A DNA stretch of 62,658 bases, the filler included, from Nemertoderma westbladi (taxonomy: Eukaryota; Animalia; Xenacoelomorpha): NCBI GenBank assembly GCA_032718475.1. It is 3 parts of 3 records of this genome, joined end to end, with 100 filler letters (N's around TTAATTAATTAA, not from the genome) between each part and the next. Parts side by side here need not be neighbours in the genome. Positions count along the whole stretch, not along the records: positions 1 to 28,739 come from JAUCBJ010001742.1; 2 more parts are not named here. One strand, written 5' to 3'. The notes under the pieces are model-generated. The model saw nothing but the letters and a program-made list of their open reading frames with translations, ran no database searches and had not been told where the DNA came from. Made by a program: the position numbers and the translations under genes. Shown piece after piece: positions 2,299 to 50,179 of the stretch (positions within the stretch are counted from its first letter, which is position 1; every line of letters starts with the position of its first letter).

Positions 2299-4314
2299 TA
2301 GGATTTATTTGTATATTATTAGGTAATAAAGAATTTTAATTAACAATTAATTTGTTTAATTATATCAGCTGATTTTGAAAAGTCCAAATTTTGCTCTCGT
2401 AACTCCTCCGACATTCTCAAAATGTTTCTATAAAATATATTAGGTAATATTAGGCAGACAACTGATACGGATGTTGAAATATTTAAGGCAACACTTATGA
2501 GTTAAGGTGCACCTTAGCTAAGGTTGATTTATATGCAACTGGCCTGTTACGGTATATGCGCTGTATACATATATTAGTCAGTTATACTGTACATATATTA
2601 GTCCATTATACAGTATAATATATTAGTCCTTTATATAGTATCATATATTAGTCCGTGATGCAGTATAATTATTTTAGATAAGGCATAATAGCGCAGTGAC
2701 ATTTAGATAAGGAGAATAAAACGCCCATATATTTTAAATTCATCCATTTTGTATAGTATGTAGCCCTACCTATGTAATTTTGTAATAGGATATAAGTAGA
2801 TAGTTCCAGGGTAGCAAGTTCTTGTTGGACCCTGGATATGGGCTTGCTATTATTAGCCTTGATGGGGCTAGCTATTGGTTTTAATTTTCTCTATAATGCG
2901 CTAAATTAACCTTTGTGCATCATGTTATTAGTACCGCTAAATTAAGCATTGGCAAAATTACCTTATATGGTGACGAATTGTGGGTTTTAGGAGCAATAGG
3001 TTCACAATCCGGCTCTCTTATTGGCCTAACTGCTTCCAGGTTGGTCTAATGATAGCTCGGATTGGGGAGCCAATGAGAGATCGATTGCATCACCTTTCTC
3101 AAATCACCTATAAATTGGCGTTTTGCCGGTATGTGCTGTGTTAGTTACAGTAGTGATAGTTTCTTCTTGATTATTCAGAGTTTCGGATACATTTGTGCGT
3201 AAATTCTGTATTTCTGCTTTTTTCGGAATTATTTTCTTGCAATGATTAGCTAGATTCTTGCTTGTGTTTCTCAATCAATCCCAATGATTGCTGTCAATTA
3301 CACTTGGAACTATGATTTCTACCTTTTAGTAAATGGTTCTATGTGATTTATTTCGACGCAATAATCCCACGGGATTTCTTAGACTGTCAGACTTTGTGAT
3401 TTGCATGTGCCGTTACGGTAGCTACCCATAGGATGGAGAGCTAAGTTACCGATAGGCGCAGGGTGCATCGGGGGGTTAGCGACGAAGGGAGCGCGGAGGA
3501 TTCAAAGGCGGGCAACGCTGGCATGAAGGTCACCGTTGCGGTTGGGCATTTGGCAGTGTAGAGCGGAGACCACTCGCTAGTACAGTAATTAGGGGCTGAT
3601 GATCCAGATTTTGTCTCTATTTTGTAGTATTAGGGGGGCAGGAATTGGGTTAGTTAGGAAGCCTAGATGTACTCGGGAGAGGCCTACATGCTTTACATAT
3701 CGAATTGCGAGTTGCGGTCGTTGCGAATAGCAAACGGCACTGTATTGTGAACTATTGATTGTTACGCTGATTGGTGTGTTACTAAAGTGTGCCTAATAAA
3801 TCACGAATGCTTAGATAGGCACTCTTTTCCCTTTGATTGATTTCTATTTCTTAGTTACGAAATTAATTATTGCTTAGGTTGAAAATAATACAGTATCTTA
3901 GGCTGTTACTAGTGTGACCCGGTGTGTAATAAATTAGAATTGCGCATTCTGGAATACTTAGTAATTAGTACGCTGTTACATATTTGTGACTGTAATTAAT
4001 TAGTAAAATTAAGAATTTGTACGCAGCATAGCGGAGAGTAGTTAAGGTAATAATTTAAAGTACCGTAAACTATTCATGCTGGGCGGTTATTTGAATTAGC
4101 GGGCAATAAGTTAGATCGCAGTATACAGTACGCAAAACGCATTAGTAATTTGCTGGCCTAAAGCCAGCCGTAGGCAAGTTTAGTCCCACAATAGGTATTA
4201 CCCCTAAATAAAACTGTACCATTTTTGATTATTTAAATATTCTCACATTCACACATTCCATTAGGGAACCCCAGTATTTGCGATTAGACGCGATTGTTTG
4301 CGATTAGATTAGAG

Positions 4315-4583
4315 TATAAAAGACGTAATTATTAGCGCGTTTTAAAAGTAAGATTAGGCCATAAGAATACACTCTGAGTGTAAGGCCTCTCACACTCGTC
4401 TTAAGTCAGCTTAGGGAGTCGATTCAGGTTTGTTGTTTTGGTTATTCCCGCTTGGCTCATATATTCGAACAGTTAGCTCTCTATTGAGTAATTGATAGAG
4501 AAAGTAACGAGAATTTAGCAGGAGCCGTAGAAAATTAGGAAATATATTAGCGGACGGCAGATTAGCGCCATCCAACGGTAAGT
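4315..4583 (+). promoter_or_regulatory. LTR TATA-like box (TATAAAA near 4315) and consensus splice donor CG/GTAAGT (4578-4583)
   Basis: Motifs are visible. The donor is also present in the 3' LTR (24147), and AATAAA lies about 50 nt before the LTR end (7588; 24214). Confidence 0.45.
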
Positions 4584-4592
4584 AGTGGGTTT

Positions 4593-7533
4593 CTCACTCC
4601 TCTACGTATACACGGATACTCACTACCAATTACTAACAACAGACAATACGGAAAACGTCAGAGGGGCGGGACAGCCATATACCTAAAAAACGGACTAGAC
4701 TACACACACCGTACAGATATTACAATTGAACACTGCGAATCTTCTTGGGTTAGTATTTCTAGAACAAAAAAATCTAAAAATATAAAACCAATATTAATAG
4801 GCAAAATTTATCGCCCTGATTCCTGCGATCTAAATAATTTTCTAGAAAATGTCAACAATTTACTTTATAATTTATCAACTCAAAATCTTGACGTTATTTT
4901 AACCGGCGATTTCAATTTAGACCTTTTAAAAAAATCAAACAACGCTATTAAATACCTACAAGTTTTAGAATCATACTCCTTCGAACAACTAATTAAAGTC
5001 CCAACTAGAATAACCCCCCATTCCAAAACTCTACTTGATCACATTTCAACAAATATACGAGATAAAATAATAACTCCCGGTGTTTTCCTTGCAGAAGTAG
5101 GTACAACTGACCACTTAGGTACATTTATTACAATTCAAAATTACTCATGTTTTTTTAACCCACCTGAAACACGTTACACTTACGACTATTCTAAATTTAA
5201 CAAAGAAAACTATCTAAACGATTTGCGAGAAACCAGCTTGTGGACATATAAAAATGATAATATTATGACTGAAAATAAATTTGAAGAATTTTACAAAAAT
5301 TTTGAAAAAATAACGAGTAAACACCTACCGAAAAAACAATTAGAAAAAAATGAAATACCAAAAAAACCATGGATGACCATAGGACTGATTAAATCGTCAA
5401 TAACTAAAAATAAAATGTACGCCGCTCTCTCAAAAAATACGACAGAAGAAAAATTAAAGGAATATAAAAAATACCGTAACAAATTTTCGAAAACTCTAAA
5501 ATCTGCGGAAAAATTATATTATGCAAAAGAATTCGACAAAAACAAAAATAATATGAGAAAAACATGGAATACAATAAATTCAGCTTTAAACAGGTCAAAA
5601 CCGAAAACTTCACCAAAAAAACTAATTATTACTGATAAGAATGGAAATAATAAAGAAATTACTAACCCCAAGGAAATCTGCAGTGTTTTTAACAACCACT
5701 TTGCTACTATAGGAACTCGACTGGCACAAGAGATACCCACAACAAACAGAAACCCAATACGTTATATAAACCACAAAAAACCAAACTCCTTCTCACTTGT
5801 TGAAACCTCTAACACTGAAACTATTTACAACATACTAGATCTCAATAACTCAAGTTCAACTAATGACAGCTTCCCCATCACTCTAGTTAAATTAGCAGCG
5901 TACGATATTGCACCACATTTGACATATCTGATAAATCTCTCTATTAAAACCGGTTCATTCCCATCCACTCTTAAATCTGCTAAAATTACCCCAGTTTTTA
6001 AATCCGGCGTCCCTACTGACAAAAATAATTACAGGCCCATATCAATATTACCTGTATTCAGTAAACTCTTTGAACGCGTAATCAACTCCCAACTAATCTC
6101 TTATCTAGACAAGTACTCCATACTCTCACAATACCAATACGGATTTCGAAAACAATCTACAACAACAGATGCCATACTGACTGTAACCGAAAAATTACAA
6201 AATATTCTAGAATTACAAGAATCTGCCTGTTTGATATCAATAGATCTTAAGAAAGCCTTCGATACTTTACAACACAATATTCTCTTAACGACGATACAAA
6301 CCTACTTTACAATCACAAAGACCTTGAAATACTAACTGAAACTGTAAATACCGAACTTAATAAAATTGATCTATGGCTAACCGACAACCAACTATCATTA
6401 AATCTTAAAAAAACAGAGTATCTATTTTTTACAAATAAAAAAGAAACAAAACACAATAACATAAAAATACGTAATCAACCAATAAAAAATGTAAATGAAA
6501 CAAAATTTTTAGGAATTTGGATAGACAGAAAGTTATCTTGGAAAAATCATTGTGCTTATGTTTTGAAGAAAATCTCAAAATCAGCTGGTATATTTTTTAA
6601 ACTCCGACACACTCTACCACTACGTATAAGAAAATTACTCTACTGTTCACTGATACAACCTTACATTAATTACGGTATAGTGATCTGGGGTAACGCTCAA
6701 TCTACACATACAAAACCTATTAAAATTAAAATAAATAAACTAGTCAGAGCTAGCTATTACCTTCAGTCACTACAGAGAACACGCATCACCACTCTACAAA
6801 CAATTAGATATACTACCGATTGAAAAACTGCATTTTCTTGAAACAGCTAAACTAATGTGGGAAATCCACAATAACAAAAAACAAAATTTTATCACTTCGT
6901 TGTTTCAACAAACATCTACTGTACATACTTCCAACACAAGATCAACAACAAGAAAAAACTACTATGTACCACGGACCCGACTACTACAAGGACAGAAATC
7001 ATTAAAATATAACGGTGTCATTGTCTGGAACACGCTAGATGTAGATATGAAACAAAGTAAATCGAAAAAATCATTAGGAAGAAAATTAAAAATTAAACTA
7101 ATAAATGAGCTACAGTAAGATAAAATACGAGAAATAAAATACAAAAAAATATAAAATATTGCGATTTTATCCAGTTTCAACTCCTAAAAATACAAATTAA
7201 ATTAATTGAATAAAAAGTAAAATAAATATACAGTACTTTGTGGGAAAAACGAAAAAATGGAAATCGCCTGAGCTGTTGCTGGTTGGATAGGCTAGTACCA
7301 CCCCACCCACCCCCCCCCCCCCCCCCCCGAACTGGTCGTTGATAGCAGTTGACAAAACTAGCTTCGGCTACTGCCAACTACTATCAGTGCACTATTATTA
7401 CCAACATTCAAAATTATTAAATTGTTAAATGCTTACCCTGCTAATTAAAAATTAAAAATAATGCAATTATTGTTATAATTATTGTGTACGACCACTCGGT
7501 ATAAATAAAAATAAATAAATCTCAATCTCAATC
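4593..7533 (+). mobile_element. 5'-truncated CR1-group (L2/Crack-like) LINE inserted in the 5' LTR
   Basis: APE motifs (RGGGTAIY, IYRP, TGDFN, PTRIT, LLDH, TDH) and RT motifs (NYRPISILP, QYGFR, IDLKKAFDT). An internal deletion near 6288 jumps to DDTNL. The 3' tail is AATAAA...(AATCTC)n, and the LTR resumes at 7534. Confidence 0.92.
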
Positions 7534-8883
7534 TTTTGTACTCCGCAGCCCTACATTAGTAATTATACGCTCCTGATTGCCCTGTTTAATAAATAGAGCA
7601 GTTTGTGTTTTTATTGGTTAGGCCGGGTAGTTTGTTCGAAACAGTAAAGCACGTTTTGTTTTGCTGTACTGCGTACAGTAAGACAGAGAGTGTATTCTTT
7701 AGGCTGTTAGTTTAGACTACTGTTAGTTTTGTTTGTTTTGCTGCCTTTCAACAGTAAAGCACGTTTTGTTTTGCTGTACTGCGTACAGTAAAGTACGATT
7801 AAGATTGCTGTATTAGGTACTGTACTGCGTACGGTGAGACAGAGAGTGTATTCTTTAGGCTGTTAAGTTAGAGTTTGGTATTCATTAGTCGCAATACAGT
7901 AGTACAGTAGTGCATTAGGCTGATTTCTGTTACTGCGTACAGTAGAAAAGACATTTGTTTTGCTGTACCACATACAGTATTCATTAGGCTGTTAGGTTAG
8001 TGTACTGTTCTAGTTACTGTACTGCGTACAAGTGGATGTACGGTAGTGCGTTTACTAATCACAAATACAGCAGTTCATTAGGCAAGCTGTAATTAGTAAG
8101 TTTTTGAAAATATTAGCTAGGTTTGTGAGAATTCAGTTTCGGTCAAAATTATTTTGTAATAAAATCTAGAGTTTTGTACCGGTATATTAGATAACCGCTT
8201 AGTTGTTTTATACCATCTGGAGATACATGGCAAGACGGAGCTTCTGAGTTTGGGGTTCGTGTGGGTCTGCGGGTTCGGTTTGCAATCCGTGAAAGGACTG
8301 AAACTTTGGACGCGGATGTGGAATCTCACAGCAAACAAGGTTAGTTGTTCTGTTGGCACCATTGTGTTTGTGGAAGCAGTAAAAAATTATCGGTTGTTTA
8401 ACTGCGAAGCTGAACTCAATTTATTAGTTAGGTTAGTTAGGTTTAGCCGACCATGTTTTTTGAATCGCTCAAGTTAGAGAGAGAGAAAGAGAGAGAGTCG
8501 CAGCGCAAAGATGTAGCCACGCGCTAGTGGATACATATAATATTTGAAATTAAAATTGCGTTAATTAGAGCTGTATATGCAAAATTAGAAATATTTGGGT
8601 GGCAAGTTTATTTTGAATATTTTGTATTAGATTCAAAGTTATTTTGTGCTATACCGGTATTTAAATGCTATATAATAGCTATAGAATAATATTTATGTTT
8701 AAATTTTGTATTGGTATTTGCTACAACTATATCCTATTAAATTCCCAATATTGTATTGCGAATTTATTTGACATTTTGAGACCAACCAATTATTTGACAA
8801 ATAATTTAACCGCATTGCGATTAAATTATATATATCTCGAATTTTGCGAGATTTTAGCCGGAAGGCAAAATATTACTTAGACA

Positions 8884-11800
8884 ATGAGTGTCTCAGACAA
8901 GGAGGCACTAGAGGACAGCTATGAGACGGCGGCCGGGCCGCCGACTGATACAGTGTAGACATAACTGTTGACGACAATGCCGACTATGACGACGCAGCGA
9001 GTGATGCTGATGTAAGTGAACAGGAGGACGAGACAGTAACCAGTGAGGAAGAGCAAGGTGAGGTAATAGTATTAGGATCCCCTACCACTACTGTAAGGAA
9101 GGATTGTATAGCAACCCGGCCAGAGGTGAGTGATAGGGAGGGTAGTATAGCAGAAGCGAGAGCCCGGAGCCCGGTTTCCAGACCTGTGGGCATGGTAAGT
9201 GCCGTGGTCCCAGCGGCTATAAGGAGTACCCGTAGTTCCCGAAATAATCCTTCAAGTCCACCGAGTGTGAGTCAGGTAAGCGAGAGAGAACTAGACATTG
9301 CGATAAAGAAGAAACTTCGTGCGCATGCCGGACATATAACCCGGACGGCGGACAAGGTAAGGAAGATGTTAGCCAACTCAGCGAACATCGGAAGGGAAGG
9401 GTTAGTAGAGATTAGAAGAGGATACAACTCAGCGTTATTCAAGCAGACAGAGGAGCTTGCAGTCCTAGCAAAGAAAGCAGTGGAGTCTCAGTCGAGCGAC
9501 ATGGCGACGATGATTTACGATAGGGTTTTAGCAGCCTTGTTGGAGCACCGCGCGTTATCGGAGCGATTTCGACAAGTTAGGACGGATAACTGGTTGCTAT
9601 GGGCATCACAAGCGCAGGCAACTCAGGTGAGCGGCGCAGAGTTGAGAGATTTAGTGGAGCGAGAAGAGACGCAAGATAAGGAAGTGCGCCGTTATCAGAG
9701 GGAAGTTACCAGTTGGCTGATGCAGAGTGGAGTGGTGGTACCGGGCCAGGTGCTACCAACGACGGAGAACATCCAACAGAGGACGTTGACTCCACCCGAC
9801 GACGCATCTAGAGACAGTGGCGATTCCCAGGTTAGTCACGCGCGAGGTAAGGTTATATGTGCTAGATCCCTTGTTTCTCACAACTCGGCAGAGGAGAGAA
9901 GATGCCGACTGGACGAACAACAGGCGGAAGTTTTGCGTGCAGCGGAAGCACGGAAGGAAGCTGAGCGGGAATGGGAGCGCACACGTAAGTTAGACGCGAG
10001 GTTGCGAGAGTTGGAAGATAAAGGTAAGCGTGAGCAAGCGGAGCGTGAACAGAAGGAACGCGAACTCCAACTCGAACGCGAACAGAAGGAATGCGAACTC
10101 GAACTTGAACGCAAATGCAAGGAACGCGAACTCCAACTTGAACGCGAACGGAAGGAACGCGAACTCGAGATCGAGAAGGAGCGACAGGCGTTGTATGAAG
10201 AAAAGAGGCGTGTGGAAGAAGAGAGCGCAGCGAGATGAGCAAGGGAAGAAGAAGAACATAAACTGGCGCAGTTGGAAAGTGCGAGATTAGATTTAGAGAG
10301 CGAAGAACGGACCAGAAAGGCGAATGAAATCGCCGAGAAGGGGATGCGAATGATCGAAGAATGTGGGGCGAGTGTAGGTACCGAGTTGCGAGAACTGTTC
10401 GCACTGCAGAAGGCCGAACAGGAAGCGAGAACTCCGACTGTATGTGAGTCGACGACGACCAAAATTCCTATACCCGGTCCAGCTATTACAAGTACTCGGA
10501 TTGCTAAACCGTTCGCTACATATCGCACGCCAGTTGGTATTAGTGCTTCACCCATCGTGCAGGATCCACGTCATCAGAACACCGCACCAGTACATATCGA
10601 ACGTGAGAACGAAGAATTTAGAGGAGAAACTCCAACGGGACGAGTATTTGGCGAACCGAACCCGCGGGTTTGGAATACACGGACAGAGCGCCGACCCAGT
10701 TCGACGGAGAACTTCCGGGTTAAACCGGAAGAGGGATCATATGAGAGACAGCGGTTTACTCAGATAGAGCCGACTATACAACAGAACCCTAGCCAGGAAT
10801 TTATTACGAGGGATGAGTTAAGTGCTAGTTTAGCGCAAGCTATTTCGCCGCACATCCAACCTATAACGGACATGCTTAGTAACCTGCAGTTAAAGGAAGC
10901 AGCCCTGGTAAGAAGTAATTCAAATCCTAGCAGGCCTGACTTAGATAAAGTCCAACCTAGTCAACGAGTACGTATATCGGAGGCAACTATACCACATAGA
11001 CCTCAGGTAAGGACGCCTGTCCCGACTATTTCTAATCCCAATTTCGAAAATTTGGCAGAGAAGTTTATACAGGAGGCTTGGGTCAGGGCCTCGGGCCAAC
11101 ACGAGCGCTAAGGACTGACACTGAATCAATCGATGAAGAGGAAGACATGAGACGTCAGAAGTCCCGAATCTATAAGGAAAGAAGGACGGACGCGGAGCAG
11201 GTAAGTTTGAACCACCGGGAAAGGACCAGACTTAATAACCCTGCAGAACTAAACCATTTGTTAACCCGGAACGACGCAACTCTTAGAGACATAGGGAAGT
11301 TTGCCGCTAGGCAAGGACTACCGCGCAACAACCCCAGAAGTTTATGGGCAACCATAAGCACTGGAGGACATTCAAAACTTATGCCGATGAACAGCTGACC
11401 AACAGCACCTTTACTCCCAACGAGAAGTTTAACTATTTGCTTCAAATGCTCCATCGAGAACCTAGAGTCATTGCTGACAATTTTGTTGGCAATGAAAGAG
11501 CGTTTGAGTTAGCAATAAAGACACTTAGCGACATCTACGGGAATAAAACCAAGATGGCACAGTCGATAGTGCAAGACTTGAGTAAAGGCGGAAGGATAAC
11601 AACTCCGTTAGAGCTGTTGAACTTAGCGAACGCTATTTCGAACGCATTGGACATCTTGAGGATGGTGAATCTACCTCATCATGGTGATCACGCCGAAGTT
11701 TTAAAGAGTGTAATAAGATGTTTAAACATGCGTTACAGACAGAAATGGCGCAAATTAGAGAATAAGTTGGAGGGTCAAGGTAAGGTGTTGACACTTCAAC

Positions 11801-14800
11801 ACATTCATGACATGATAGCCACAGACGCAGTAGCAGAGATGAAATCAAATTTCTCAGAGGAGAATATGAGAGAGTCTAAACCTGTTACTGGTAAGTCTAT
11901 GGTAAGTTTTGACGATGACAGGACCACTGTGACATTTAACTCAGTAGACAGATATAATTCGAGTACCCCAGCCTTTAGATCAGACTCGCGAGTATGGTCA
12001 GGTGAGCGGTTAGATAGACCTAGGTTAAAGCAACAAGAGTTGCCGGATGGATTTGTAGGTTGCCAATTCTGCTTACTAAGGAGGTAAGATCTGACAATCA
12101 TAAGTTAGATAGTTGCAGACGGTTCAAATAATTAAATTTGGAACAGAGAAGAGTTCAAGTGCGGACGTTGGACACCTGTTGGGCATGTCTTGCACCAGGT
12201 CATGTACGGCGGCAGTGCCCGAACAGCAAGGACGGATGCATGGAATGCGGCAGACTACATCACAAGTTGCTACATGCAGATTTCCATACCCCAATGGATC
12301 GTTACTTACAGCGAAATCCTCAAAGGAAGGGGAGCAAAGAACCCGTATCGATAAGGAGAAATACGTACACCGGCATTCAGGACGATGGTTATCAACCAGG
12401 TTTGTCGGACGAGGATGGCGAGTCGAGTGCGAGAGAGGTGACCTGCCAAGGTTTCACCGCGGATAGTTCATCGACCAGCGCGTGGACGTATTTATCATCG
12501 GCCACGTCGGAGATATTTAGCGTGATTCCGGTGAAACTTACCAGAGATAAGGGATTGAAAAGAATATATGTGATGTTGGACACTGCGTCCACATTATCCT
12601 ATATCAACGAGGAAGTGGCGAGAGCCGTTTCTAGCTTCCAAGATGCCGAGGAGATCCAAATAGAGTTGAAGTCTATGCACGGGGTAGGGGACACAGAATT
12701 TTGGTAGAACTAGACTCCCTACTTCCGAGAGAGCAACACACTCGACAAGAACGAAGAGCATTGCCATTGGACGGATTCAAGTGTCTAGCTATGAAGGGGT
12801 TCGGCAGGCAGTTAGGTAAGGTGCCACCGATGAGTCCCATAGCACAGGAGTATTTTGACAAGGTTAGAGTACCGAGACACCAGGTAGGTTATAGGAATGT
12901 TTCTATGTTAATTGGTGCAGAACAGCTGATCACACACCAGATATGGAAAACGAGACCAGCTGAGCCGCATGTAAATGGACCACATGCCCATAGGACTATA
13001 TTAGGTTGGTATACAAGAGTGCCCATGTCCTATGAGTTTACAGGTGGCGACAAGCCAATAGACAGATACAACGAATTACAGCCTATAGCTGAACCACCGT
13101 TAGTAGAACCACCAGACATAGACGAGTTTAGGAGAACTTGTATTGACCATTATAGTGACGTTAGCGAGTCGGACGAGGAGTTGATTCCCGATAATGTTAG
13201 GTTGTCGGAACCACTTCACAATGACCAGACAGATAGTGAACCCGAGGACTACTGTTATCAGACCCGTGGGTCTGGTTCAGCGGCCCACGCTACCTATTTG
13301 AGTAACATTTTGACTTATACCGACATAGTGGAGGGTCAAGTGGCTAAATATTGAGACCTAGACATTTTCCAATACAGTGAGGAGGAGTTGCAGAAGGAAT
13401 TGATACGCCAGGACCTTGAGACAGGAGCCAGAACCGTCGAATGGCTGGATAAGGACGCAATGGAACCCGGTGGATATGACCTAGCCATGTCTACTGATGA
13501 GAAACGGGCGCTGGAGATGATGGAAGATACCATACGTCTGCTACTGACTGGACATTTTGAAGTTGGAATGTTGTGGCGTCGACAACCACCTAAGTTGGAG
13601 AACAACTACAGCTTAGCCTTGAAAAGATTGAACGGAATAAGGGCTCGGTTGTTAAGGAATCCGGACATTAGGGAGAAGTATTGCGCCCAGATCAACAACT
13701 ATTTTGCCAAGGGATTTGCTGGGAAGGTAGAGGAGCCGGACTTAGTGACGGACCAGACTTATTACCTCCTACACCACTATGTGACTCACCCTGACAAACC
13801 TGACAAAGTCCGAGTAGTCAACGACTGCGCAGCAGTCTACAGAGGTATGTCCCTGAATTCAGAGTTGATGGACGGTCCCAACCTGAACAATTATTTGATA
13901 GGTATACTTTTACGTATTAGACAGCGGCGATTCGCATTTACTTGTGACATCGAGGCGATGTTTCACCAGGTAAGAGCCTGTAAGGCAGACCAGGATAGTC
14001 TTAGATTTCTCTGGTTTGAGAATGAAGACTTATCCGGCCCAGTGGTTACATACCAGATGTACGTTAGGATATTTGGCGCCCGCGATAGTCCAAATGGCAC
14101 GCTGTTTGTTCTAAAGAAAACGGCAACAGCCCAGATTGGTAAGTACCCAGTAGAGGTTATTGAGTCCATCTTGAGAAACTTCTACATGGACAACGGATTG
14201 GTGTCTAAGGACACAGCGGAATAAGCCATAGAAGTGGCTCACGGCCTGCAAGAGTGCTTGGCTACAGGGGGATTCCCTCTGACCAAGTTCACTACAAACT
14301 CGGAGGCCCTATTAGAATCGTTCCCGGTGAAAGATCGCGGGAGCGGAGACATTGAATTGGGGGTAGAACCCATCCCCATGACACGAGTACTGGGACTCGC
14401 TTGGAATCCGAACACGGATAAGTTCCAGGTAAGAGTTAGATTTGAGCCCAGTAGTCCAGACAAAGTTTTGACAAAGAGAATTTGCTTATCGACATTGAGT
14501 AGACTATTTGACCCGATGAACTTTATCAGTCCGGTAATATTACAGGCACGAGCGTGCATGAGGAAAATTTGGTTGTCCAACCTCGAGTGGGACGAACCAA
14601 TATCTCCTATACATGCAAAGCAGTGGAGAGAGTGGGAAGCCGAGTTACATCTATTGAAAAATATAGATGTACCCCGTTCCTACTTTCCGAATCAGCTGAT
14701 ATTCCCAGCTGATCTCGAACTCCATTTGTTCAGTGACGCAAGTGACACCGGATTTGGTATGGTAGCCTACCTTCGCCGAGAGGTAAGTCAGGACAAGTTT

Positions 14801-17180
14801 GAGACGGCTTTTGTGACTTCTAGATCAAAGACAATGCCGGTCAAATACATGACTGTCCCTCGTGCAGAGTTACAGGTGGCAGTAGTTTCAGTCGAGGTAA
14901 GTAAGCAGATAATAGAGGAGTTAGACACGACATTGACCTTATTCTATTGGACGGACGCATCCTTAGTGTTAGTATATATCGCAGCCGACAATATTGCACT
15001 AAAGACATTTGTGGCCAACAGACGCGCTCAGATCGTAGACGTTTTGACGAAGGAACAATGGAGACATTGTCCGGGAGTGTTGAACCCGGCCGACATAACT
15101 TCGAGAGGTGCAATGCCGGTGGAATTCTGTCAGGAAGAGTCGCAGGAGTTTTGGTTGCATGGACCTGATTTTCTAACAAGGACACAGGAACATTGGCCAG
15201 AGCGACTGAAGATAGTGACCAATCCGATGCCAGAAGATGCAGAGGTCAAAGTGGAGAAAGTCTCTAAGTCAAAGTCTAAAGCCAAACTCAAGTCATTGGA
15301 GCGGCCTGAAGAGTCATTGGAGCGGCCTGAGATATCATTGGAGCAGCCCGGAGACATGTCAGACCTACAGACTTACGTGACTACTATGTCAGGAAGGGTA
15401 AGTTATGACATAAAACCACCCTTACAGACTAAACCAGAGTCACAGTTGGTAAGTGACGGACAGAAAATGACCGACACAATGGAGCCTTTGGTTTCCAAAC
15501 CTGCGGGTTTGGATTCGAAACTTCCATTAGTTAGCGGACAACCGTCGCTGGCATTAGAGCCAGCTAGTATTTATGATAAATTACTAAATTCGTCTGCCTC
15601 TTGGATGACAATTTGTAAAAGAACTGCGTGGTTAAGCCGATATATTCCGTACCTTTGTTTAAAACATTCGAAACATTTCGGAGAACAAATGAGCACTAAT
15701 AGTGAGCGAATTCAGAAATTGAAACAACCTCTGACAGAGGATGAAATTGATCAAGCGGAATTAAAGCATTTGAAGCATTATCAAATGTGTGCCTTCCCAA
15801 AAGAATTCCATCTATTATCGGCTCAACGACCAGTTCTCTATAAACCCCTTAGAAAATGGAGTCCATTAATCCATAAGGGTTTGATTTGTCATAGATCGAG
15901 AATCCAGACTGTCGACATAAACTCACAGTTTAGGTTCCCAGTGATAATCCCTAGTCACCCAATAGAATTTCAAAGAGCGATTCCATGGGATATACACAAG
16001 CGATTGCATCACGCGGGAAAGTTACACTGTTTGTCGGCAGCGAGACAGTGATTCATTCTATTGCAGCCAAGCAGGGCAGTAGGTACTATGTACGACGCCT
16101 GTCTGGTTTGCAAGAGGGTGAATGCCAGAGTATTGGAACAGGAGATGGCTGAACTCCCAGAAGCGAGAGTGCAGGCATATGACCCACCCTTTACGAATAC
16201 AGGGATGGATTGTTTTGGTCCGATTGAGGCAAAGAGTGGACGGCTGACCCACAAGCGATGGGGCCTGCTACTGACATGCATGGCTAGTAGAGCCATACAT
16301 ATTGAGCGTGTGGCAGACATGTCGACCACATCTCTGCTCCTGGCCTTAAAGAGATTTATGGCCAGGAGAGGACTAGTAAAGGCGTTTTACTCTGATAACG
16401 GTACAAACTTTGTCGGAGGGAATAGCGAGTTAAACGTGGCACACAAAGCAGCACAGAATAAAGAAATTTCTGCAGCACTTTTGCCCCAAAGAATAGAGTG
16501 GAGATTCAATACTCCAGAAAGTCCTTGGAGAGGAGGAAGTTGGGAGCGTTTAGTTTGCTCTATAAAGCAGGGCATTGCCAAAACATTGCCTGTGAACAAA
16601 CAACTTACCGACGACGAGCTGGTCACAGCTTTCATCGAAATCGAGCATACACTAAACTCGAGGCCGATAGCTATGTTGCCAGACGGTGTTGCATTAACGC
16701 CGAATCATTTGCTAATGCAGAGTCCAGCATTTCTTGTGCCGGCATCAGAACCCATTAGTGCCGACCTATATAGTCGTAAGAGCTGGAAAATAACTAAAAA
16801 AATGAATAATGGAAAATAAATTTGTGGCGTACACATTCTGGGAATATTGGCGGGAATACTATCTTCCCACCATATCTACCAGATCAAAGTGGTACAAAAC
16901 GGTTAGGAGCCTCCAAAGAGGAGACTATGTATTGATAACCGAGCCGATTGTCAAGAGAAAATATTGGGAGACGGGAGTCATCTTGCATATACACCCAGAC
17001 GTGCAAAACATAGTGCGCACAGTCACTGTGAAAATTAGGTGCAAGTGTCCGAAACCAAAGAAGTGTAAAACTAATGGTTTACGCACCTTGGACCGACCGG
17101 TCCAAGATATTGTGTTATTAGAGGAGACACGCATCAAGACAGGAGATTATAATTTGTCTCCTGCCTCAAAACAAAATTAG
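8884..17180 (+). pseudogene. BEL/Pao gag-pol polyprotein, about 10 stops/frameshifts
   Basis: Coiled-coil Gag N-terminus and Gag core (11344-12087); three BEL-type Cys/His knuckles (CWACLAPGHVRRQC, CMECGRLHHKLLH); protease LDTAS; RT DIEAMFHQV/FGARDSP/YMDN; RNase H FSDAS, PRAEL, WTDA, NPADITSRG; integrase GMDCFGP, SDNGTNF, GGSWERL; C-terminal FWEYWREYYLP domain. Confidence 0.95.
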
Positions 17181-17882: not shown

Positions 17883-18014
17883 CGTAATTAGTTACGTAAC
17901 GGAACCTTATTGGGATATATATATATATGTATATACGCGGATTGTAATGGAGAAGGGAATTAGAGCCCAACCAAATGAATCGAATCGAATGTTTACTACC
18001 ATGGAAGGTCGGTA

Positions 18015-18464
18015 ATGGAGCTAAATGGAAAGTATAAACCCTCTTACGATAAAGAATTAAGGAGGGAAAGAATGAGAGCGTTGGGGGACAGTATGGAAGT
18101 TTTGCGGAAGGAGTATCGCACTCGGTATCCCTACGATTTCGCGTTAGACGTATGCGACATTAGTGCAGACCCGGACGAGGAGATCGCACGGCTGTACCAT
18201 ATGAACATGTATTTACGACATGAAGAGCCTCTACCTGCAGTCCGAGATTAGTTCGACAGAATGCATCTTTACAGGAGGACTCGAGGCGAGGATCAAGAGA
18301 CGTCGAAGGTCTTCAGTGTATACAAGTTGTTCTATAAATGTGGTGAATGCATGAACAAACAAGACGTGGCGATTCCCGACCGATTGGACGAGTAACATCC
18401 TAAACCGATATTAACGTGATGTCAAGCTCACCAATTCCTTAGATACAACGAGGGAGGTTACCCA
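18015..18464 (+). pseudogene. Probable N-terminal extension of the extra ORF (same frame, three stops)
   Basis: ATG 18015 is in frame with 18465; stops TAG 18249, TAA 18393 and TGA 18417; no frameshift. Confidence 0.5.
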
Positions 18465-21400
18465 ATGAGCAACCCGATGATCAGTATCGACTTCAGCAGA
18501 AAGCGGCCTCCAAGACCTATTACGCTGACCGTTACGACATTAGATCCGTATACGGAGATTAAACCCTGTTCGACACCCAGTTTGATAGAGACAGCAGCGG
18601 CCATTTCGCTATACCGAGCCTACAAGGATCTAGAGGTGCGGCGCGAAGCGGCACGGGACTCGGGTACCAAACCCGTGGGTTTGGAGCTCTCGAGTCCCTG
18701 GACTACGTTTACTTTACCTCATCGAGCGAGAAGCCTCACGCCTGAGCATCAGGACGACATAGACGCGTTGCGGCAGGAGGAGCGAGCAGCGAAGGCAAAA
18801 CAATTATTCGATGCGCGGGTAGCGGAATATAATAAGACCGCGGATAGACATCAGGAGGAGACGAGGAGAATGACCGGATTTGTTCCACAGGCCGTATCTC
18901 AACCCCGACCGGTGTATCATTCCGACGGCAATAAACCTGCGATATTGGTAGATCACCCGGAGTCGCAAGAAGCAAATAGATTCTTGCCGATGGTGAGGAT
19001 GTCGGATCATTGGAACGTCGACTGTCTACGGGAAGTTTTATGCGCGAAGTTTTTGCGTGATGTCCCGATGCAGATCACAGACTATGACACATTGGATAAG
19101 ATTGGAGCTCCGGGGAAGGAGATTAAGCTATTCGGATGGTTAGACAAGTACATCAAGGTATGGGTCGCGGTGGCTACATTTCCAGATGACGAGGAGGTAG
19201 ACCAGGCGTGGCTGAGGAGAAAGGGATCTTACACCCGATATGACGACCACAAGGCTATCGAGCGCATGTGGACCCCATCAGAAGAGATTCAGCGTCAGTG
19301 GAGGAAAACGGAGGAATCACTGCAGGATTGGAGAGTGATGTTCTACAACAATGAAGGAGGGTCTCATCAGGAATGCTTGACTAGTAAGTGCATTCAAATT
19401 CGCGCGGCCGATGGTGTGACTCATGTGTTTATGCGCGTAAGAGCGGATAGAGAGAAACTGGAGCCCATAATCACGACACAATATCGGAAGGGGAAGGATC
19501 CTAGGGAACAGATTTTGGAGGTATGCAGGCGAGGAGGTATGCACGGAGCGGAGCGTATCGACGCCAGGATGCTACCCAAGAAAGTTAGAGAGGTGTTTCT
19601 TAACCAAGATTATGTCAAGGTGGGATCGGGAGTCCAGAGCGATTTGGAAAGTGACTTTAACGCCATGACTGATTTGGAGGATAGATTGCCAAGACCGTTT
19701 GTCGACACCAAGCTATTGTTGCTATGGGCACAGGATATTGGAATTTATAGGGAGTATCCCAACTCTGCCAAGACTGGTATGGGCTTCATAGCACATTTAT
19801 TGTATAATTGGGACTTCAAGTTGAAGACGCAGAAGAAATACGAGGAGGCGTATGGTGAATATAACACGCCACCGGGAGCAGAGTTTAAATCCCACTTCAA
19901 GCGGCAAGCGTTAGTGTATTGGAACATATGCGCGCCACCCCGTGCGTCACTACAATATTATTTGGTGCTTGAGTCGAACACGGTAACTTGTTTAGTAGCG
20001 GATATCGTTGCGCGAGTTTTGAAGCGTCATCCATTGGTGTTCGGAGGAGATCAATACGTTCGCTCGAAAGGGGGAATCCAATCCGACGTGATGAAGCGTT
20101 TCTTAACCCCGTTCTTCAACCAATCGTTAGAGAATACGTCGATGGTGAGGAGAGGATTAGCGATATTCGAAGGGATATATCGACAGAATATCGGAGATTT
20201 GGGAGACCGACCGTCGATGGAGTATCTGACGCCAGAAGCTTTGGAGAAGTGGTTCGGGAATCAAACCCACGGGTTTGGTACTCCCTTCCACTCGGAGGCT
20301 GATAGACCTGTTAGAGAGGGTTGGCCGGAGACGTTAGTAGAGGTGTTTGGAGTAGAACTTCTGGTAGAGAAGACATATCCGAAACGAACGCGGGAGGAAA
20401 TATTGGAGATAGAGGAAAAGGGCGAGGATGTTTACTTCGTTCCGGATCGACAACCTTTAACTGGAGAGGATGACATCGTATTAGACATTGGGAAAGAAGG
20501 AAGTGTGAAACCGATTGGAGACCTCATATACGAGAGGGCCTGGTTTCCACAAGCGCATAGGTGCAAGTTGTGCGGCAGCACAAGGCACAATCAAAAATCG
20601 TGCGACGCAGTAGTGGAGGCGGCGCATAAGGTCTGCCGTTGGTGCAACGAGACCAACCATTCATTTCATACGTGCACCGTTTTCATTTCTCAATGTGGAT
20701 ATTGTGGAGTAAAGGGACATTGTAGCGCAAGATGCCAACTGCGAGACGATTCCTTCCAAAACCATAGCGCTAACCTACTTCGGGAGATGCTAGATAAGTG
20801 GGAGAGTGTGGCTGACTACCACATACAAGCGCAGATGCATTGGTTACCATTTAAGGCGGGATATGGATTTTGGGCGGTAGACCCATCACATGTTGCATAC
20901 GAGCCATATTTGCAGTCGTTACCACAATATCAGGAGCTCATCCTAACCGCTCAAGACCTTCCACAGAACACTGGAGTCATAGTTGTTCGGGAATACTTCA
21001 GACAACTAAATATGGATAATAAGTACACTTGGAACTTTGTTGCTATTTGTGACCGTATCACGAAAGGTCTATTTTCGGAAACTAGAAAGGTGGTGCGCGC
21101 GCGAGGAGATTGGAGGATGGCGGCTATTCAATACTGCAACGAATTCCTATTGACTCACGTACCAGTGGGGTCGTTGACCGCTCGGAGAATTGAAGAACAG
21201 CGAACCACAGCGCCCACAGTGACGACCGTTGGAGCTCAAGGCTCACGGAAGGAACCAGGAGGAGAGGTCCGAGACAAGCATCAAGTCAAGGACGACCACT
21301 ATCATTTGATTATAGAGGCTCAGCGATTGCAGCGCAAGGCGCAGGGGGCGTCGGAGAAGGCGCGTGTGCAATTGCAAAAGGAAGAGTTGGCGGAAGTGAC

Positions 21401-21602
21401 CACAGGAGCACGACAATTGGGACGAGGTCGAGGTAGAAGCATGAGCTGGGAATCTGTCGGGGCTCAGGGAACATCATCGCCGGTTCCGGGGAGTGACGCC
21501 TCAAGGACGCCGTCAACAGAGTCTACAAGGAGTAGACTGGTGTATCTGGGGAGGGGGCAAAGGAGAGGAGCGAGCCCGAGAGACCCAGGAGCTAGCCGAT
21601 GA
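18465..21602 (+). CDS. Accessory ORF of the BEL element: DnaQ/DEDDy (WRN/EXD-like) exonuclease-fold domain plus three CCHC zinc knuckles
   Basis: 1045 open codons. ExoI-like VMFYNNEG (19335), LPKKVREVFLNQDYVKVGSGVQSD (ExoII), FVDTKLL, KTGMGFIA and W..PP..SLQYYLVLES (ExoIII-like). Three CX2CX4HX4C knuckles at 20562-20735; RG/S-rich tail. Confidence 0.8.
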   Translation: MSNPMISIDFSRKRPPRPITLTVTTLDPYTEIKPCSTPSLIETAAAISLYRAYKDLEVRREAARDSGTKPVGLELSSPWTTFTLPHRARSLTPEHQDDIDALRQEERAAKAKQLFDARVAEYNKTADRHQEETRRMTGFVPQAVSQPRPVYHSDGNKPAILVDHPESQEANRFLPMVRMSDHWNVDCLREVLCAKFLRDVPMQITDYDTLDKIGAPGKEIKLFGWLDKYIKVWVAVATFPDDEEVDQAWLRRKGSYTRYDDHKAIERMWTPSEEIQRQWRKTEESLQDWRVMFYNNEGGSHQECLTSKCIQIRAADGVTHVFMRVRADREKLEPIITTQYRKGKDPREQILEVCRRGGMHGAERIDARMLPKKVREVFLNQDYVKVGSGVQSDLESDFNAMTDLEDRLPRPFVDTKLLLLWAQDIGIYREYPNSAKTGMGFIAHLLYNWDFKLKTQKKYEEAYGEYNTPPGAEFKSHFKRQALVYWNICAPPRASLQYYLVLESNTVTCLVADIVARVLKRHPLVFGGDQYVRSKGGIQSDVMKRFLTPFFNQSLENTSMVRRGLAIFEGIYRQNIGDLGDRPSMEYLTPEALEKWFGNQTHGFGTPFHSEADRPVREGWPETLVEVFGVELLVEKTYPKRTREEILEIEEKGEDVYFVPDRQPLTGEDDIVLDIGKEGSVKPIGDLIYERAWFPQAHRCKLCGSTRHNQKSCDAVVEAAHKVCRWCNETNHSFHTCTVFISQCGYCGVKGHCSARCQLRDDSFQNHSANLLREMLDKWESVADYHIQAQMHWLPFKAGYGFWAVDPSHVAYEPYLQSLPQYQELILTAQDLPQNTGVIVVREYFRQLNMDNKYTWNFVAICDRITKGLFSETRKVVRARGDWRMAAIQYCNEFLLTHVPVGSLTARRIEEQRTTAPTVTTVGAQGSRKEPGGEVRDKHQVKDDHYHLIIEAQRLQRKAQGASEKARVQLQKEELAEVTTGARQLGRGRGRSMSWESVGAQGTSSPVPGSDASRTPSTESTRSRLVYLGRGQRRGASPRDPGASR

Positions 21603-21826
21603 GACTATAGTATCACGGGGCGACAGACTCTAGATATATACATCATCGTCGCTCTGATGTATATTGTAGCATTTTTTGTAAATATCCGACTAGACTCATA
21701 TACACTAGCCGCACTGATTTGAATTTATATTATGAGAGAGGCGAAGGAGGTGATTGGGGAGACAAACCTGCGGGTTTGGCTTACTCCTTTCACCTGCCCT
21801 AGCAAAATTTTATAAATGAAAGTAAT

Positions 21827-22115: not shown

Positions 22116-24270
22116 TGTTACGGTATATGCGCTGTATACATATATTAGTCAGTTATACTGTACATATATTAATCCATTATACAGTATAATATATTAGTCC
22201 ATTATATAGTATCATATATTAGTCCGTGATGCAGTATAATTATTTTAGATAAGGCATAATAGCGCAGTGACATTTAGATAAGGAGAATAAAACGCCCATA
22301 TATTTTGAATTCATCCATTTTGTATAGTATGTAGCCCTACCTATGTAATTTTGTAATAGGATATAAGTAGATAGTTCCAGGGTAGCAAGTTCTTGTTGGA
22401 CCCTGGATATGGGCTTGCTGTTATTAGCCTTGATGGGGCTAGCTATTGGTTTTAATTTTCTCTATAATTGCGCTAAATTAACCTTTGTGCATCATGTTAT
22501 TAGTACCGCTAAATTAAGCATCGGCAAAATTACCTTATATGGTGACGAATTGTGGGTTTTAAGAGCAATAGGTTCACAATCCGGCTCTCTTATTGGCCTA
22601 ACTGCTTCCAGGTTGGTCTAATGATAGCTCGGATTGGGGAGCCAATGAGAGATCGATTGCATCACCCTTCTCAAATCACCTATAAATTGGCGTTTTGCCG
22701 GTATGTGCTGTGTTAGTTACAGTAGTGATAGCTTTCTTCTTGATTATTCAGAGTTTCGGATACATTTGTGCGTAAATTCTGTATTTCTGCTATTTTCGGA
22801 ATTATTTTCTTGCAATGATTAGCTAATTGATTCTTGCTTGTGTTTCTCAATCAATCCCAATGATTGCTGTCAATTACACTTGGAACTATGATTTCTACCT
22901 TTTAGTAAATGGTTCTATGTGATTTATTTCGACGCAATAATCCCACGGGATTTCTTAGACTGTCAGACTTTGTGATTTGCATGTGCCGTTACGGTAGCTA
23001 CCCATAGGATGGAGAGCTAAGTTACCGATAGGCGCAGGGTGCATCGGGGGGTTAGCGACGAAGGGAGCGCGGAGGATTCAAAGGCGGGCAATGCTGGCAT
23101 GAAGGTCACCGTTGCGGTTGGGCATTTGGCAGTGTAGAGCGGAGACCACTCGCTAGTACAGTAATTAGGGGCTGATGATCCAGATTTTGTCTCTATTTTG
23201 TAGTATTAGGGGGGCAGGAATTGGGTTAGTTAGGAAGCCTAGATGTACTCGGGAGAGGCCTACATGCTTTACATATCGAATTGCGAGTTGCGGTCGTTGC
23301 GAATAGCAAACGGCACTGTATTGTGAACTATTGATTGTTACGCTGATTGGTGTGTTACTAAAGTGTGCCTAATAAATCACGAATGCTTAGATAGGCACTC
23401 TTTTCCCTTTGATTGATTTCTATTTCTTAGTTACGAAATTAATTATTGCTTAGGTTGAAAATAATACAGTATCTTAGGCTGTTACTAGTGTGACCCGGTG
23501 TGTAATAAATTAGAATTGCGCATTCTAGAATACTTAGTAATTAGTACGCTGTTACATATTTTTGACTGTAATTAATTAGTAAAATTAAGAATTTGTACGC
23601 AGCATAGCGGAGAGTAGTTAAGGTAATAATTTAAAGTACCGTAAACTATTCTCGCTGGGCGGTTATTTGAATTAGCGGGCAATAAGTTAGATCGCAGTAT
23701 ACAGTACGCAAAACGCATTAGTAATTTGCTGGCCTAAAGCCAGCCGTAGGCAAGTTTAATCCCACAATAGGTATTACCCCTAAATAAAACTGTACCATTT
23801 TTGATTATTTAAATATTCTCACATTCACACATTCCGTTAGGGAACCCCATTATTAGACGCGATTGTTTGCGATTAGATTAGATTAGAAAAGACGTAATTA
23901 TTAGCGCGTTTTAACAGTAAGATTAGGCCATAAGAATACACTCTGAGTGTAAGGCCTCTCACACTCGTCTTAAGTCAGCTTAGGGAGTCGATTCGGGTTT
24001 GTTGTTTTGGTTATTCCCGCTTGGCTCATATATTCGAACAGTTAGCTCTCTATTGAGTAATTGATAGAGAAAGGAACGAGAATTTAGCAGGAGCCGTAGA
24101 AAATTAGGAAATATATTAACGGACGGCAGATTAGCGCCATCCAACGGTAAGTAGTGGGTTTTTGTACTCCGCAGCCCTACATTAGTAATTATACGCTCCT
24201 GATTGCCCTGTTTAATAAATAGAGCAGTTTTGTGTTTTTATTGGTTAGGCCGGGTAGTTTGTTCGAAACA
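22116..24270 (+). repeat. 3' LTR of the BEL element (2155 bp)
   Basis: TG...CA termini; matches the 5' LTR. Confidence 0.95.
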
Positions 24271-29714: not shown

Positions 29715-30092
29715 TTACAAAGGCAGAGAGCCAGACCAACAGCTGGCCATGTATATACCATATGATTGAAGTTTTGATATAAGCTTTGTGTGTGAAACTT
29801 TATCGAATGCACGTTGGAAGTCTGTGTAGATTATGTCCACACCAACACTCGAGTTACGAAATGTAGCCCAATCGAGGCTGCATTCAAGTAGTTGAGTAAA
29901 AGTTGATTTTGATTTGAGGAAACCGTGTTGGTGGGGACTGATGACCTTTATACGGACTAAGTATGCAATCATACGGTTTCGTATTATTGTTTCCATTGTT
30001 TTCACCAGTAGACTTGTTAGAGAAATAGGTCGATAGTTTGACGGATCAGTGCGTGGGCCTTTATTCTTGAAGATTGGAATTATGTGAGCCAA
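29715..30092 (-). mobile_element. CR1-type LINE reverse transcriptase fragment
   Basis: IIPIFKNKG..DPSNYRPISLTS..QHGF..DIIYTDFQRAFDKVSH..KLQSYGI. Confidence 0.88.
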
Positions 30093-33658: not shown

Positions 33659-33892
33659 TTAACCCTAATTCAGTAATTAAGTAATTAAAACTGTATTTTA
33701 GGCTTAGATGTAACCCTACCTAATCCTGTACTGCTGTAAGCTGTAACCCTACACCCTAAGTCATACCGGTAGCGGTAATTTAAGAAATTTCGCGGGATGT
33801 CCGACATTATTGATATAAGGCAGTACCTAACAGCCTATGGCCCGGTGGATTAGATTATTACTTAGGGTTAGGGACTTACAGACTTAGGGGTT
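33659..33892. promoter_or_regulatory. Cluster of telomeric-type TAACCCTA/TTAGGG motifs upstream of APRT
   Basis: TAACCCTA near 33660, 33710 and 33744; TTAGGGTTAGGG near 33862 and TTAGGGG near 33884. Confidence 0.35.
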
Positions 33893-34041
33893 GGATACCT
33901 GTACGGTACGTACCGTACATGGCAGATCTGATTTTAAACACATCTGATCTACCGGCAGACCGGTATCTGGGTATATCATCGCACTACCGATTTATACACT
34001 ACAACACTTGGCCTACCTATTCGTGTATCCAGTTCTCAGAT

Positions 34042-34587
34042 ATGGCATCGAACCGTCAGAATCGTCTAGACAGAATAAAATTATTAATCAAGGATTACCC
34101 CGACTTTCCTAAACCTGGGGTTCTGTTCCGGGATATATTCCCAGTCCTACGGAACAATCAGGCATTCAAAGATCTCGTAGACCTTCTATCCGAGCACATC
34201 CGTGAGACATCCATACAGGCAGTCGATGTTGTGGTAGGTCTGGACGCTAGAGGTTTCCTTTTAGGTCCGCTAGTTGCGTTGTCTTTAGGGGCGGCGTTTG
34301 TTCCCGTTCGTAAGAGCGGTAAGTTACCCGGCGAATGTTTCAAGGTTTCTTACTCTTTGGAGTACGGTACGGACTCACTTGAGATACAGAAAGCAGCTGT
34401 TCCATCCGATTCCCGTGTTGTTATTATTGACGATCTCTTAGCTACGGGCGGAACTATGAAAGCCGCATGTAACTTAGTGAATCAATGTGGCGCTCAGATA
34501 CTAAAGTGTATCTTCTGTATCGAACTATTAGCTCTGAATGGTCGAGATGGTATTAAACATGACGTTTTCTCCCTTCTACAATACTAA
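34042..34587 (+). CDS. APRT: Adenine phosphoribosyltransferase, intronless CDS (the ORF extends upstream to ATG 33919)
   Basis: YPDFPKPGVLFRDI, GLDARGF, VRKSGKLPG, YSLEYG, PRPP-binding VVIIDDLLATGGT, animal-like C-terminus FSLLQY. Confidence 0.96.
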   Translation: MASNRQNRLDRIKLLIKDYPDFPKPGVLFRDIFPVLRNNQAFKDLVDLLSEHIRETSIQAVDVVVGLDARGFLLGPLVALSLGAAFVPVRKSGKLPGECFKVSYSLEYGTDSLEIQKAAVPSDSRVVIIDDLLATGGTMKAACNLVNQCGAQILKCIFCIELLALNGRDGIKHDVFSLLQY

Positions 34588-39583: not shown

Positions 39584-39706
39584 GACTCGTACCGTACCTG
39601 TACTGTATAAATAAAAACAGGATTCTTCCCCATATAATAATTGTACAATTCAAATCGTTTCATTTGTATTTTATCTAATTTATTTCATAATAATTTTGTC
39701 ACGGTG

Positions 39707-50019: not shown

Positions 50020-50179
50020 AGTCAATTAAATATGATTCAATTTGTAATAATACACACCCTAATTAAATAAAAAATTATAATATATCCCTACAGAATTAAA
50101 ATAAATATGTCGTAACATTTCGCCACGTAGTTCAATCCAATTTATTGCGAAAATGTTCGTCATAAATTGTAGGGGGGAC

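Follow-up and report, generated by a model that had tools for sequence, protein, structure and literature searches.

A BEL/Pao Retrotransposon of Nemertoderma westbladi Carries a Gene for an Exonuclease-Like, Zinc-Knuckle Protein

Within a 62,658-nucleotide stretch of DNA from the xenacoelomorph Nemertoderma westbladi (assembly GCA_032718475.1; the whole stretch, three joined parts of three records, is here called the window), positions 1 to 28,739 (record JAUCBJ010001742.1) hold a BEL/Pao long terminal repeat (LTR) retrotransposon with a large additional gene, ORF3, between pol and the 3' LTR. ORF3 is a family-wide cargo gene, and sequence comparison indicates that its predicted product belongs to an unnamed group of proteins, akin to EXD2 and TbRND, in which an exonuclease-like domain precedes zinc knuckles. 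Its most plausible role, to which we give a probability of about one half, would be that of an accessory protein that binds RNA 3' ends without efficient cutting and so shields the element RNA from host decay or silencing.

The Element and Its Third Gene

The coordinates of the element and of ORF3 are collected in table 1. Self-BLAST of the window pairs 2545-4592 with 22116-24161 (98.4% identity) and 7534-7643 with 24160-24270. The two LTRs thus defined differ by 21 substitutions and 15 gap columns over approximately 2155 bases (about 1% divergence), and both open with TG and close with CA. The five bases flanking the element on either side are identical at four positions; the target-site duplication of BEL/Pao elements is about 5 bp. 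The 5' LTR is interrupted by a LINE with endonuclease and reverse transcriptase (RT) domains, inserted at a T run and ending in short AT-rich/TCAATC repeats, which is missing from the 3' LTR and is thus younger than the LTR element.

The order gag then protease, RT and RNase H followed by integrase (PR-RT-RH-IN), together with the BEL/Pao-specific DUF1759 and Peptidase_A17 domains, identifies the carrier as a BEL/Pao element (Belpaoviridae) at the sequence level; with the additional rve match, this bears out the assignment made in a preliminary description of the window. The gag region comprises a long acidic, coiled N-terminal part, DUF1759 and Cys/His knuckles. Inspection by eye showed no clear primer-binding site for tRNA-Arg or tRNA-Gly after the 5' LTR and no clear polypurine tract before the 3' LTR. 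Conserved pol motifs were placed at 14183, 14729, 16208, 16391 and 16532, the RT motif being located by pattern, as the broken pol pieces gave no Pfam RT match. Both regions are disrupted, gag by stops and frame shifts and pol by stops and one frame shift; with at least five internal stops and several frame shifts across gag-pol, the window copy is, judging from its sequence, dead. In place of YxDD the RT motif (14183-14194) of the window copy is YMDN, within a context prone to CpG decay; YxDN occurs naturally in some BEL/Pao RTs, so YMDN may or may not be decay.

The overall layout parallels that of Belpaoviridae/Semotivirus (PMC8742986), with LTR-gag-pol-(third gene)-LTR and the same order of pol domains. 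Where Belpaoviridae have an env-like third gene, however, that of the present element is not env-like. The ICTV profile of the family gives genomes of 4.2-10 kb and LTRs of 0.2-1.2 kb (PMC8742986), whereas the present element, the nested LINE left out, measures 18,785 bp and has LTRs of 2.15 kb. It thus nearly doubles the ICTV size range, although that range describes known members and is not a diagnostic trait; an upper length bound of 15 kb is given in the accessible text of the BEL/Pao survey by de la Chaux and Wagner (PMC3118150). A predicted gag N-terminal extension of unusual length adds to the size of the element. It corresponds to an acidic, charged, coiled-coil-like frame of about 720 codons 5' of DUF1759 (8949-11108), for which Pfam returned no match.

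ORF3 lies on the strand of the element, 835 bp beyond the pol stop. Its frame runs from an ATG at 18015 to a stop at 21600-21602 (1195 codons), with in-frame stops at 18249, 18393 and 18417; it is open from 18420 (1060 codons) and encodes 1045 amino acids from the Met at 18465, the ORF length and the three stops being as originally described. Three stops in the 5' extension are fewer than the 8.2 expected (p=0.04), and the codon use of ORF3 correlates best with that of pol (r 0.48) and gag (0.39) from the same element, with values of at most 0.18 for the other window ORFs. Across all 1195 codons no run of 19 residues has a Kyte-Doolittle mean above 1.36, indicating no membrane segment. The earlier reading of a gene standing in place of env, with neither signal peptide nor transmembrane anchor, accordingly holds for the anchor, and for the signal peptide as judged without a dedicated predictor. 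The three CX2CX4HX4C knuckles were found where they had been reported. Since no similarity links ORF3 to the gag of its element, the knuckles did not arise by simple duplication of gag.

Table 1. Features of the BEL/Pao element and of ORF3 (window positions).
Feature	Position	Strand	Description and basis
5' LTR	2545..7643	+	~2158 bp, split by LINE at 4593-7533; self-BLAST, TG...CA ends, left flank TGGCC
gag region and protease motif	8949..12704	+	DUF1759 E 5e-10, zf-CCHC E 0.0096; LDTAS at 12576
pol (RT, RNase H/Peptidase_A17, integrase)	12635..17180	+	Peptidase_A17 E 8e-39, rve E 1e-4; stop 17178-17180
ORF3 5' extension	18015..18464	+	150 codons, three stops in window copy; mostly deleted in frame in a high-depth family variant
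ORF3 open part (P0001)	18465..21602	+	1045 aa; frame and codon use
Exonuclease-like domain, putative DEDDy/EXD2/WRN type	19260..20054	+	aa ~266-530; motifs, profiles, structure model
Zinc knuckles, three, CX2CX4HX4C	20562..20735	+	aa 700-757, starting at aa 700, 724 and 744
Post-knuckle motif, no known family	20772..20954	+	aa ~770-830, common with relatives
3' LTR	22116..24270	+	2155 bp; right flank CGGCC

The Exonuclease-Like Domain and Its Relatives

Conventional searches gave little. Pfam recognised no family in ORF3, nor in the exonuclease region even at E<=10, single-sequence searches of the PDB returned nothing useful, and word-indexed homology searches with ORF3 found no relative among 7996 and 5143 candidates, while the family alignment recovered only P0003, itself one of its members (1 of 7987). 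A rotavirus VP4 match in the PDB sequence search (E 0.007) was missing under the family profile and was judged to be due to chance. An exhaustive phmmer search of 1.84 billion representatives with residues 201-800 retrieved seven unnamed proteins (E 2e-7 to 8e-4), approximately 20% identical to ORF3. All seven align over the exonuclease-like and Cys/His regions, and six of them show three knuckle-like clusters followed by the conserved motif; the best Pfam match among them is to PF01612 (E 0.2).

A profile built from six of these relatives (P0007 was omitted, P0010 stands for its cluster, and the window sequence was excluded) matched in the PDB TbRND (7C42; E 2.3e-7, mostly over the knuckles) and human EXD2 (6K17; E 2.4e-5, over the exonuclease domain), these entries being so identified in the accessible portions of PMC7797062 and PMC6648332. 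The EXD2 match extends from the first strand to ExoII (domain E 6.9e-5); further matches were to the knuckles of Lin28 and of nucleocapsid, to Egalitarian (E 0.065) and to WRN (E 0.27). The same profile recovered ORF3 with a probability of 99.6%, and relatives-only profiles score it at 86 and 57 bits against maxima of 4.1 and 8.7 in 200 shuffles, of which 78 and 98 were reported, a comparison that is partly circular. Over the stretch of the knuckles and the motif behind them (aa 695-831) the score is 55 bits, with a shuffle maximum of 8.7 bits. In the ESM Atlas, PF01612 clusters make up 25 of 30 matches and all 30 of the named ones, at scores of 0.91-0.92 (best 0.92) that are reached by chance 4-10% of the time.

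Fold prediction from the single sequence was of no use (pLDDT 33). An AlphaFold model, for which relatives were aligned to the C-terminal half of the domain only, had as its best structural matches the Nibbler exonuclease (Z 4.6, a value inside the chance range; rmsd 4.3, 125 aligned) and the WRN exonuclease (Z 3.9), and chains judged from their titles to be of the DnaQ fold fill 32 of the 50 match rows. The AlphaFold and Foldseek check suggested beforehand therefore had a divided outcome, with Nibbler and WRN in the leading structural places but low model confidence and no Foldseek match at E<=0.001. Since the profile matches of the relatives point to TbRND and EXD2, a DEDDy-type fold is nonetheless well supported despite the weak model, and we consider it very probable that the domain is DEDDy/DnaQ-like. 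The WRN-type fold named in the preliminary description is thus upheld by the phmmer relatives, the ESM Atlas and the profiles, and the leading structural matches, although of low significance, agree with it.

No further relative was found in scans of metagenome contigs (with ORF3), viral contigs (with ORF3, pol, P0003, P0004, P0006 and P0002), prokaryote genomes (with P0007 and P0005) and phage records. P0007, at 124-2025 of its contig (L002), is intronless in AT-rich surroundings and has a degenerate exonuclease domain with two knuckle-plus-motif modules. The start of an acidic ORF (3390-3685) lies 1.35 kb beyond it, and around P0007 this contig contains no RT, no integrase and no match to the window gag-pol.

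Active-Site Residues

The motifs of ORF3 read N295-x-E297 at ExoI (19347/19353), D393 at ExoII (19641, KVGSGVQSD) and Y499xxxE503 at ExoIII (19959/19971), as had been noted previously, with a probable insertion of about 35 residues following the third strand. The ExoII Asp is invariant in all seven rows of our alignment (A3). The canonical D-x-E of ExoI is lacking in the window copy, by the first Asp in the favoured register and by both acids in the MAFFT register. At ExoIII, YxxxE is found in ORF3, P0003 and P0004 and YxxxD in P0005 and P0006; as P0003 and P0004 combine YxxxE with an intact ExoI D-x-E, the Glu is a family variant and no proof of lost activity. A Glu at ExoIII can be tolerated, although our literature search on this point found no paper containing D501E.

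The register of ExoI deserves some attention. Local hhalign sets N295/E297 opposite the D-x-E of the relatives with posterior digits of 2-3, and their beta2-beta3 block fits best at residues 308-326 (0.8 versus -5.8 for the next location), where the AlphaFold model shows a hairpin. The ExoI block alone ranks the N295 location fifth among the best six listed, and global hhalign and MAFFT place ExoI in other registers. In favour of a dead site beyond the window copy, divergence from the relatives is much greater over the N-terminal half of the domain than over its C-terminal half.

Where the window copy has T or A against C or G in other copies, CpG context is overrepresented (14 of 27 differences; p=0.002 for an expected share of 0.25). 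The best-supported 40 of 380 differences include 14 other CpG-type sites but not position 19347, and the Asn is therefore probably present in some other copies at least. TbRND no longer cleaves once its first Asp is lost (D80A), according to the accessible text of PMC7797062, and the protein of the window copy is hence predicted to be inactive; that the ExoI site is dead or weak throughout the family we regard as somewhat the better bet. The label of pseudo-exonuclease given to ORF3 by the preliminary description is in this sense borne out only in part, by the absence of the ExoI Asp in the window copy; YxxxE, as found in P0003 and P0004, is no evidence of loss, and the Asn comes from one CpG-decayed copy.

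ORF3 across the Family

Contigs from four public runs were placed on window positions 17945-21800, three of the runs being DNA from organism A (two samples, one perhaps the source of the window). These three gave 4122, 3217 and 2120 contigs, covering all 30 bins at 80-100% identity, with flanks at a depth similar to that of ORF3 and at most 1% of contigs passing into unlike sequence. The run from organism B (X4) gave six contigs over 19 of 30 bins at a depth of about 4; its RNA status is a guess and it was not counted as expression evidence. Summed contig depth ranges from approximately 6,000 to 118,000, which is not a copy number.

Ten of the 12 common indels listed (of 16) lie 3' of the ORF3 stop, and the other two, inside the ORF, form a compensating pair within one contig. 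A high-depth deletion joint (18041-18370) removes a net 327 bases, or 109 codons, in frame from the 5' extension; it is represented by one contig per run, at a depth of 1350-4400 and with a short side of only 27 letters. This variant without 18042-18369, its frame intact, perhaps represents a subfamily whose ORF3 is shorter. The remaining listed deletions in the ORF3 stretch have depths of 15-169, and several are out of frame. The stop at 18393 is missing from at least 99.7% of the placed depth in each run covering it, whereas those at 18249 and 18417 are not among the best 40 of 380 differences. Among near-fixed differences inside the frame, drawn from the same best 40, third positions account for 20 of 39 (p=0.015). 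Coverage in several runs, the indel pattern and the third-position excess together indicate that ORF3 is multi-copy, with a frame that looks conserved. A nested insertion with terminal inverted repeats and a target-site duplication of its own, raised earlier as an alternative, was not found: the longest flank-to-flank match, inverted or direct, is nine bases, and contig coverage makes ORF3 a part of the family.

Comparison with Known Systems

The exonuclease cargo itself is already known. DEDDy ORF3s have been described in the bdelloid rotifer LTR elements Juno and Vesta and in Terminon/Athena elements (Rodriguez et al. 2017, PMC5408684; PMC6431247; PMC6338049); the preliminary description had named bdelloid Gypsy and Penelope-type elements, and the accessible text of PMC5408684 confirms such ORFs. 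Like ORF3, these are separate ORFs 3' of pol at the env place, with an RNase D-like DEDDy domain and no membrane segment. ORF3 differs, in a comparison by description only, in its BEL/Pao carrier, its length of 1045-1195 codons, and its three CCHC knuckles followed by a further conserved motif; in the searchable text of PMC5408684 the word "zinc" is nowhere matched and only a Cys-His-Cys motif in two families is mentioned. The ExoI Asp, absent in the window copy of ORF3, belongs to residues that the same text calls intact in rotifers. Dada (DEDDy, PMC3706591) and KolobokD (DEDDh, PMC9587614) likewise bear a DnaQ-like exonuclease as an accessory function, but are DNA transposons, and the Dada domain lies inside the transposase with all four acids kept.

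For the combination of exonuclease and CCHC knuckles there is, on sequence comparison, a cellular precedent that the preliminary description had not named, the active nuclease TbRND (PDB 7C42/7C45; available text of PMC7797062). It is the best PDB match and has the same order of domains with similar knuckle spacing. TbRND is, however, a cellular trimmer of U-tails with four knuckles and a linker of about 28 residues, whereas ORF3 has three knuckles, a spacer of about 170 residues and long extensions, and the exonuclease part alone scores only 7.6 bits against TbRND. EXD2, WRN, Nibbler (mut-7), EXD1 and Egalitarian are host genes not known to have knuckles. ORF3 resembles this group through the EXD2 profile match and the Nibbler and WRN structural matches, but its ExoI is without the canonical Asp and its ExoIII carries Glu.

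No report of an exonuclease ORF in BEL/Pao was found in the full-text literature as judged from titles and the beginnings of abstracts, a scope that excludes Repbase and most subscription journals, and the word "exonuclease" is absent from the main text of two surveys covering BEL/Pao. A BEL/Pao carrier with an exonuclease-knuckle ORF is therefore apparently new, and adds a second LTR superfamily to the known bearers of exonuclease cargo. Few animal retrotransposons have been shown to make proteins of counter-defence, and what exonuclease cargo ORFs do has been a question since the 2017 description in rotifers. The present cargo gene, 3.6 kb long and kept in frame in a family that is young and multi-copy, has TbRND as structural model and distant relatives whose site is intact, which makes the choice between trimmer and shield directly testable.

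A Possible Role for ORF3

We put forward that ORF3 would be made as a separate protein whose knuckles hold single-stranded RNA and lead the 3' end of that RNA into the exonuclease pocket, as in TbRND, where the zinc-finger domain gives RNA binding and raises activity (accessible text of PMC7797062). The pocket would be dead or weak, its first metal-binding Asp being absent; a dead pocket would cap the 3' end, while a live one would trim it. The target might be the long transcript of the element or small RNAs directed at it, and the outcome would be protection of element RNA from host decay and silencing. Dead DEDD derivatives that retain RNA binding, Maelstrom and EXD1, work in piRNA biogenesis (PMC5408684), and Nibbler trims small RNAs (PMC4819955), as stated in the accessible parts of these papers. 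A bolder version, in which ORF3 is a catalytically dead mimic of Nibbler/EXD-type trimmers, aimed by its three knuckles, that suppresses silencing by small RNAs or decay from the 3' end, and the first member to be placed of an unnamed exonuclease-knuckle family common to several mobile elements, appears unlikely.

Several points weigh against the shielding proposal. No target RNA is on record for the protein. ExoI D-x-E is kept in five of the six relatives in which the motif is complete, so the wider family looks active. In ORF3 itself the ExoI register is moderately supported and uncertain, and the Asn codon was read in one decayed copy, in a context prone to CpG decay, with the best 40 of 380 differences examined. 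Within the same 40, synonymous excess alone (18 of 39, p=0.07) is not significant. No listed contig spans the pol-ORF3-LTR stretch, so the linkage is not directly seen and the place of ORF3 between pol and LTR in other copies is one that we infer. As to the fold, the relatives were chosen for similarity to ORF3, which is why their profile scores against it are partly circular; the ESM Atlas match has 164 common features, below the 170 typical within a family; the AlphaFold model has a mean pLDDT of 49.5, with residues 19-109 under 50, and its best Z lies in the chance range; and Foldseek of the model against the PDB and BFVD, with RNase D ranked first, gave nothing at E<=0.001.

Alternatively, intact copies might encode an active 3'-5' exoribonuclease of the TbRND/Nibbler kind, with knuckles that choose the substrate and an exonuclease that trims 3' tails of element RNA or host small RNAs, the Asn being a mutation of a dead copy. 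This possibility, the less likely of the two, gains from the D-x-E of five of the six complete relatives, the ExoII Asp of every row of A3, the two relatives in which YxxxE accompanies an intact ExoI, and the CpG-type decay of the copy, in whose context the Asn codon also lies; the rotifer ORF3s, moreover, retain their invariant residues with a change from DEDD to DEED, according to the accessible text of PMC5408684. The absence of 19347 from the best 40 of 380 differences, unlike 14 other CpG-type sites, argues against it, as do the strand before the Asn, which fits the relatives poorly, and the MAFFT register, in which both ExoI acids are missing. The shielding role thus stands ahead of active trimming and, further behind, of an improbable scenario in which ORF3 is a passenger, captured once, copied without benefit to the element and decaying from its 5' end. 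Here one may point to the three stops, all within the first 135 codons (p~0.001 if uniform) and two of them not listed as private to the window copy among the best 40 of 380 differences, to the high-depth variant without 109 codons of the 5' extension, to the several low-depth out-of-frame deletions, and to rotifers, whose extra ORFs show no significant departure from neutrality in the accessible text of Rodriguez et al. (PMC5408684). Yet 1060 codons remain open in a copy whose gag-pol has at least five stops and frame shifts, the common indels fall outside the ORF while the common large deletion is in frame, third positions are enriched, and codon use is like that of the element's own genes. 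That ORF3 inserted on its own as a nested element, or is an env-like fusion protein that has gone unrecognised, as its occupation of the usual env position and the weak VP4 match over 62 residues might suggest, is very improbable and largely refuted: no terminal repeat longer than nine bases links the flanks, which have similar depth, hardly any organism A contig (at most 1%) departs into unlike sequence, no hydrophobic segment is present, and the VP4 match is gone with the family profile.

Other Features of the Window

A second LINE fragment (50726-52471, minus strand) shares 70% identity over 578 bp with the LINE in the 5' LTR. Tandem arrays of approximately 35-bp and 21-bp units occupy 25595-27159 and 36726-39560, the 21-bp array giving an open frame of 844 codons whose coiled-coil matches in Pfam are spurious. 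An uninterrupted ORF of 709 codons at 30042-32171 has domains like those of P-element transposases, one the TNP-like RNase H N-terminal domain and the other GTP-binding. A phosphoribosyltransferase gene (33814-34587), which we take to be APRT-like, and a PhyH-family gene (39641-40564) are single open frames with no apparent intron. At 45401-50751, direct repeats of 573 bp (99.3%, TG...CA) surround an ORF of 695 codons that contains long Ser/Asp/Glu/Pro repeats and matches nothing in Pfam; beside an assembly gap, this is possibly a young non-autonomous LTR element. Finally, a GC-rich frame (54612-57899), about 1095 codons long and interrupted by a single stop, for which Pfam gave no match, has RT-like motifs and a C-terminal Cys/His and nuclease-like region that hint at a CRE/R2-type non-LTR element.

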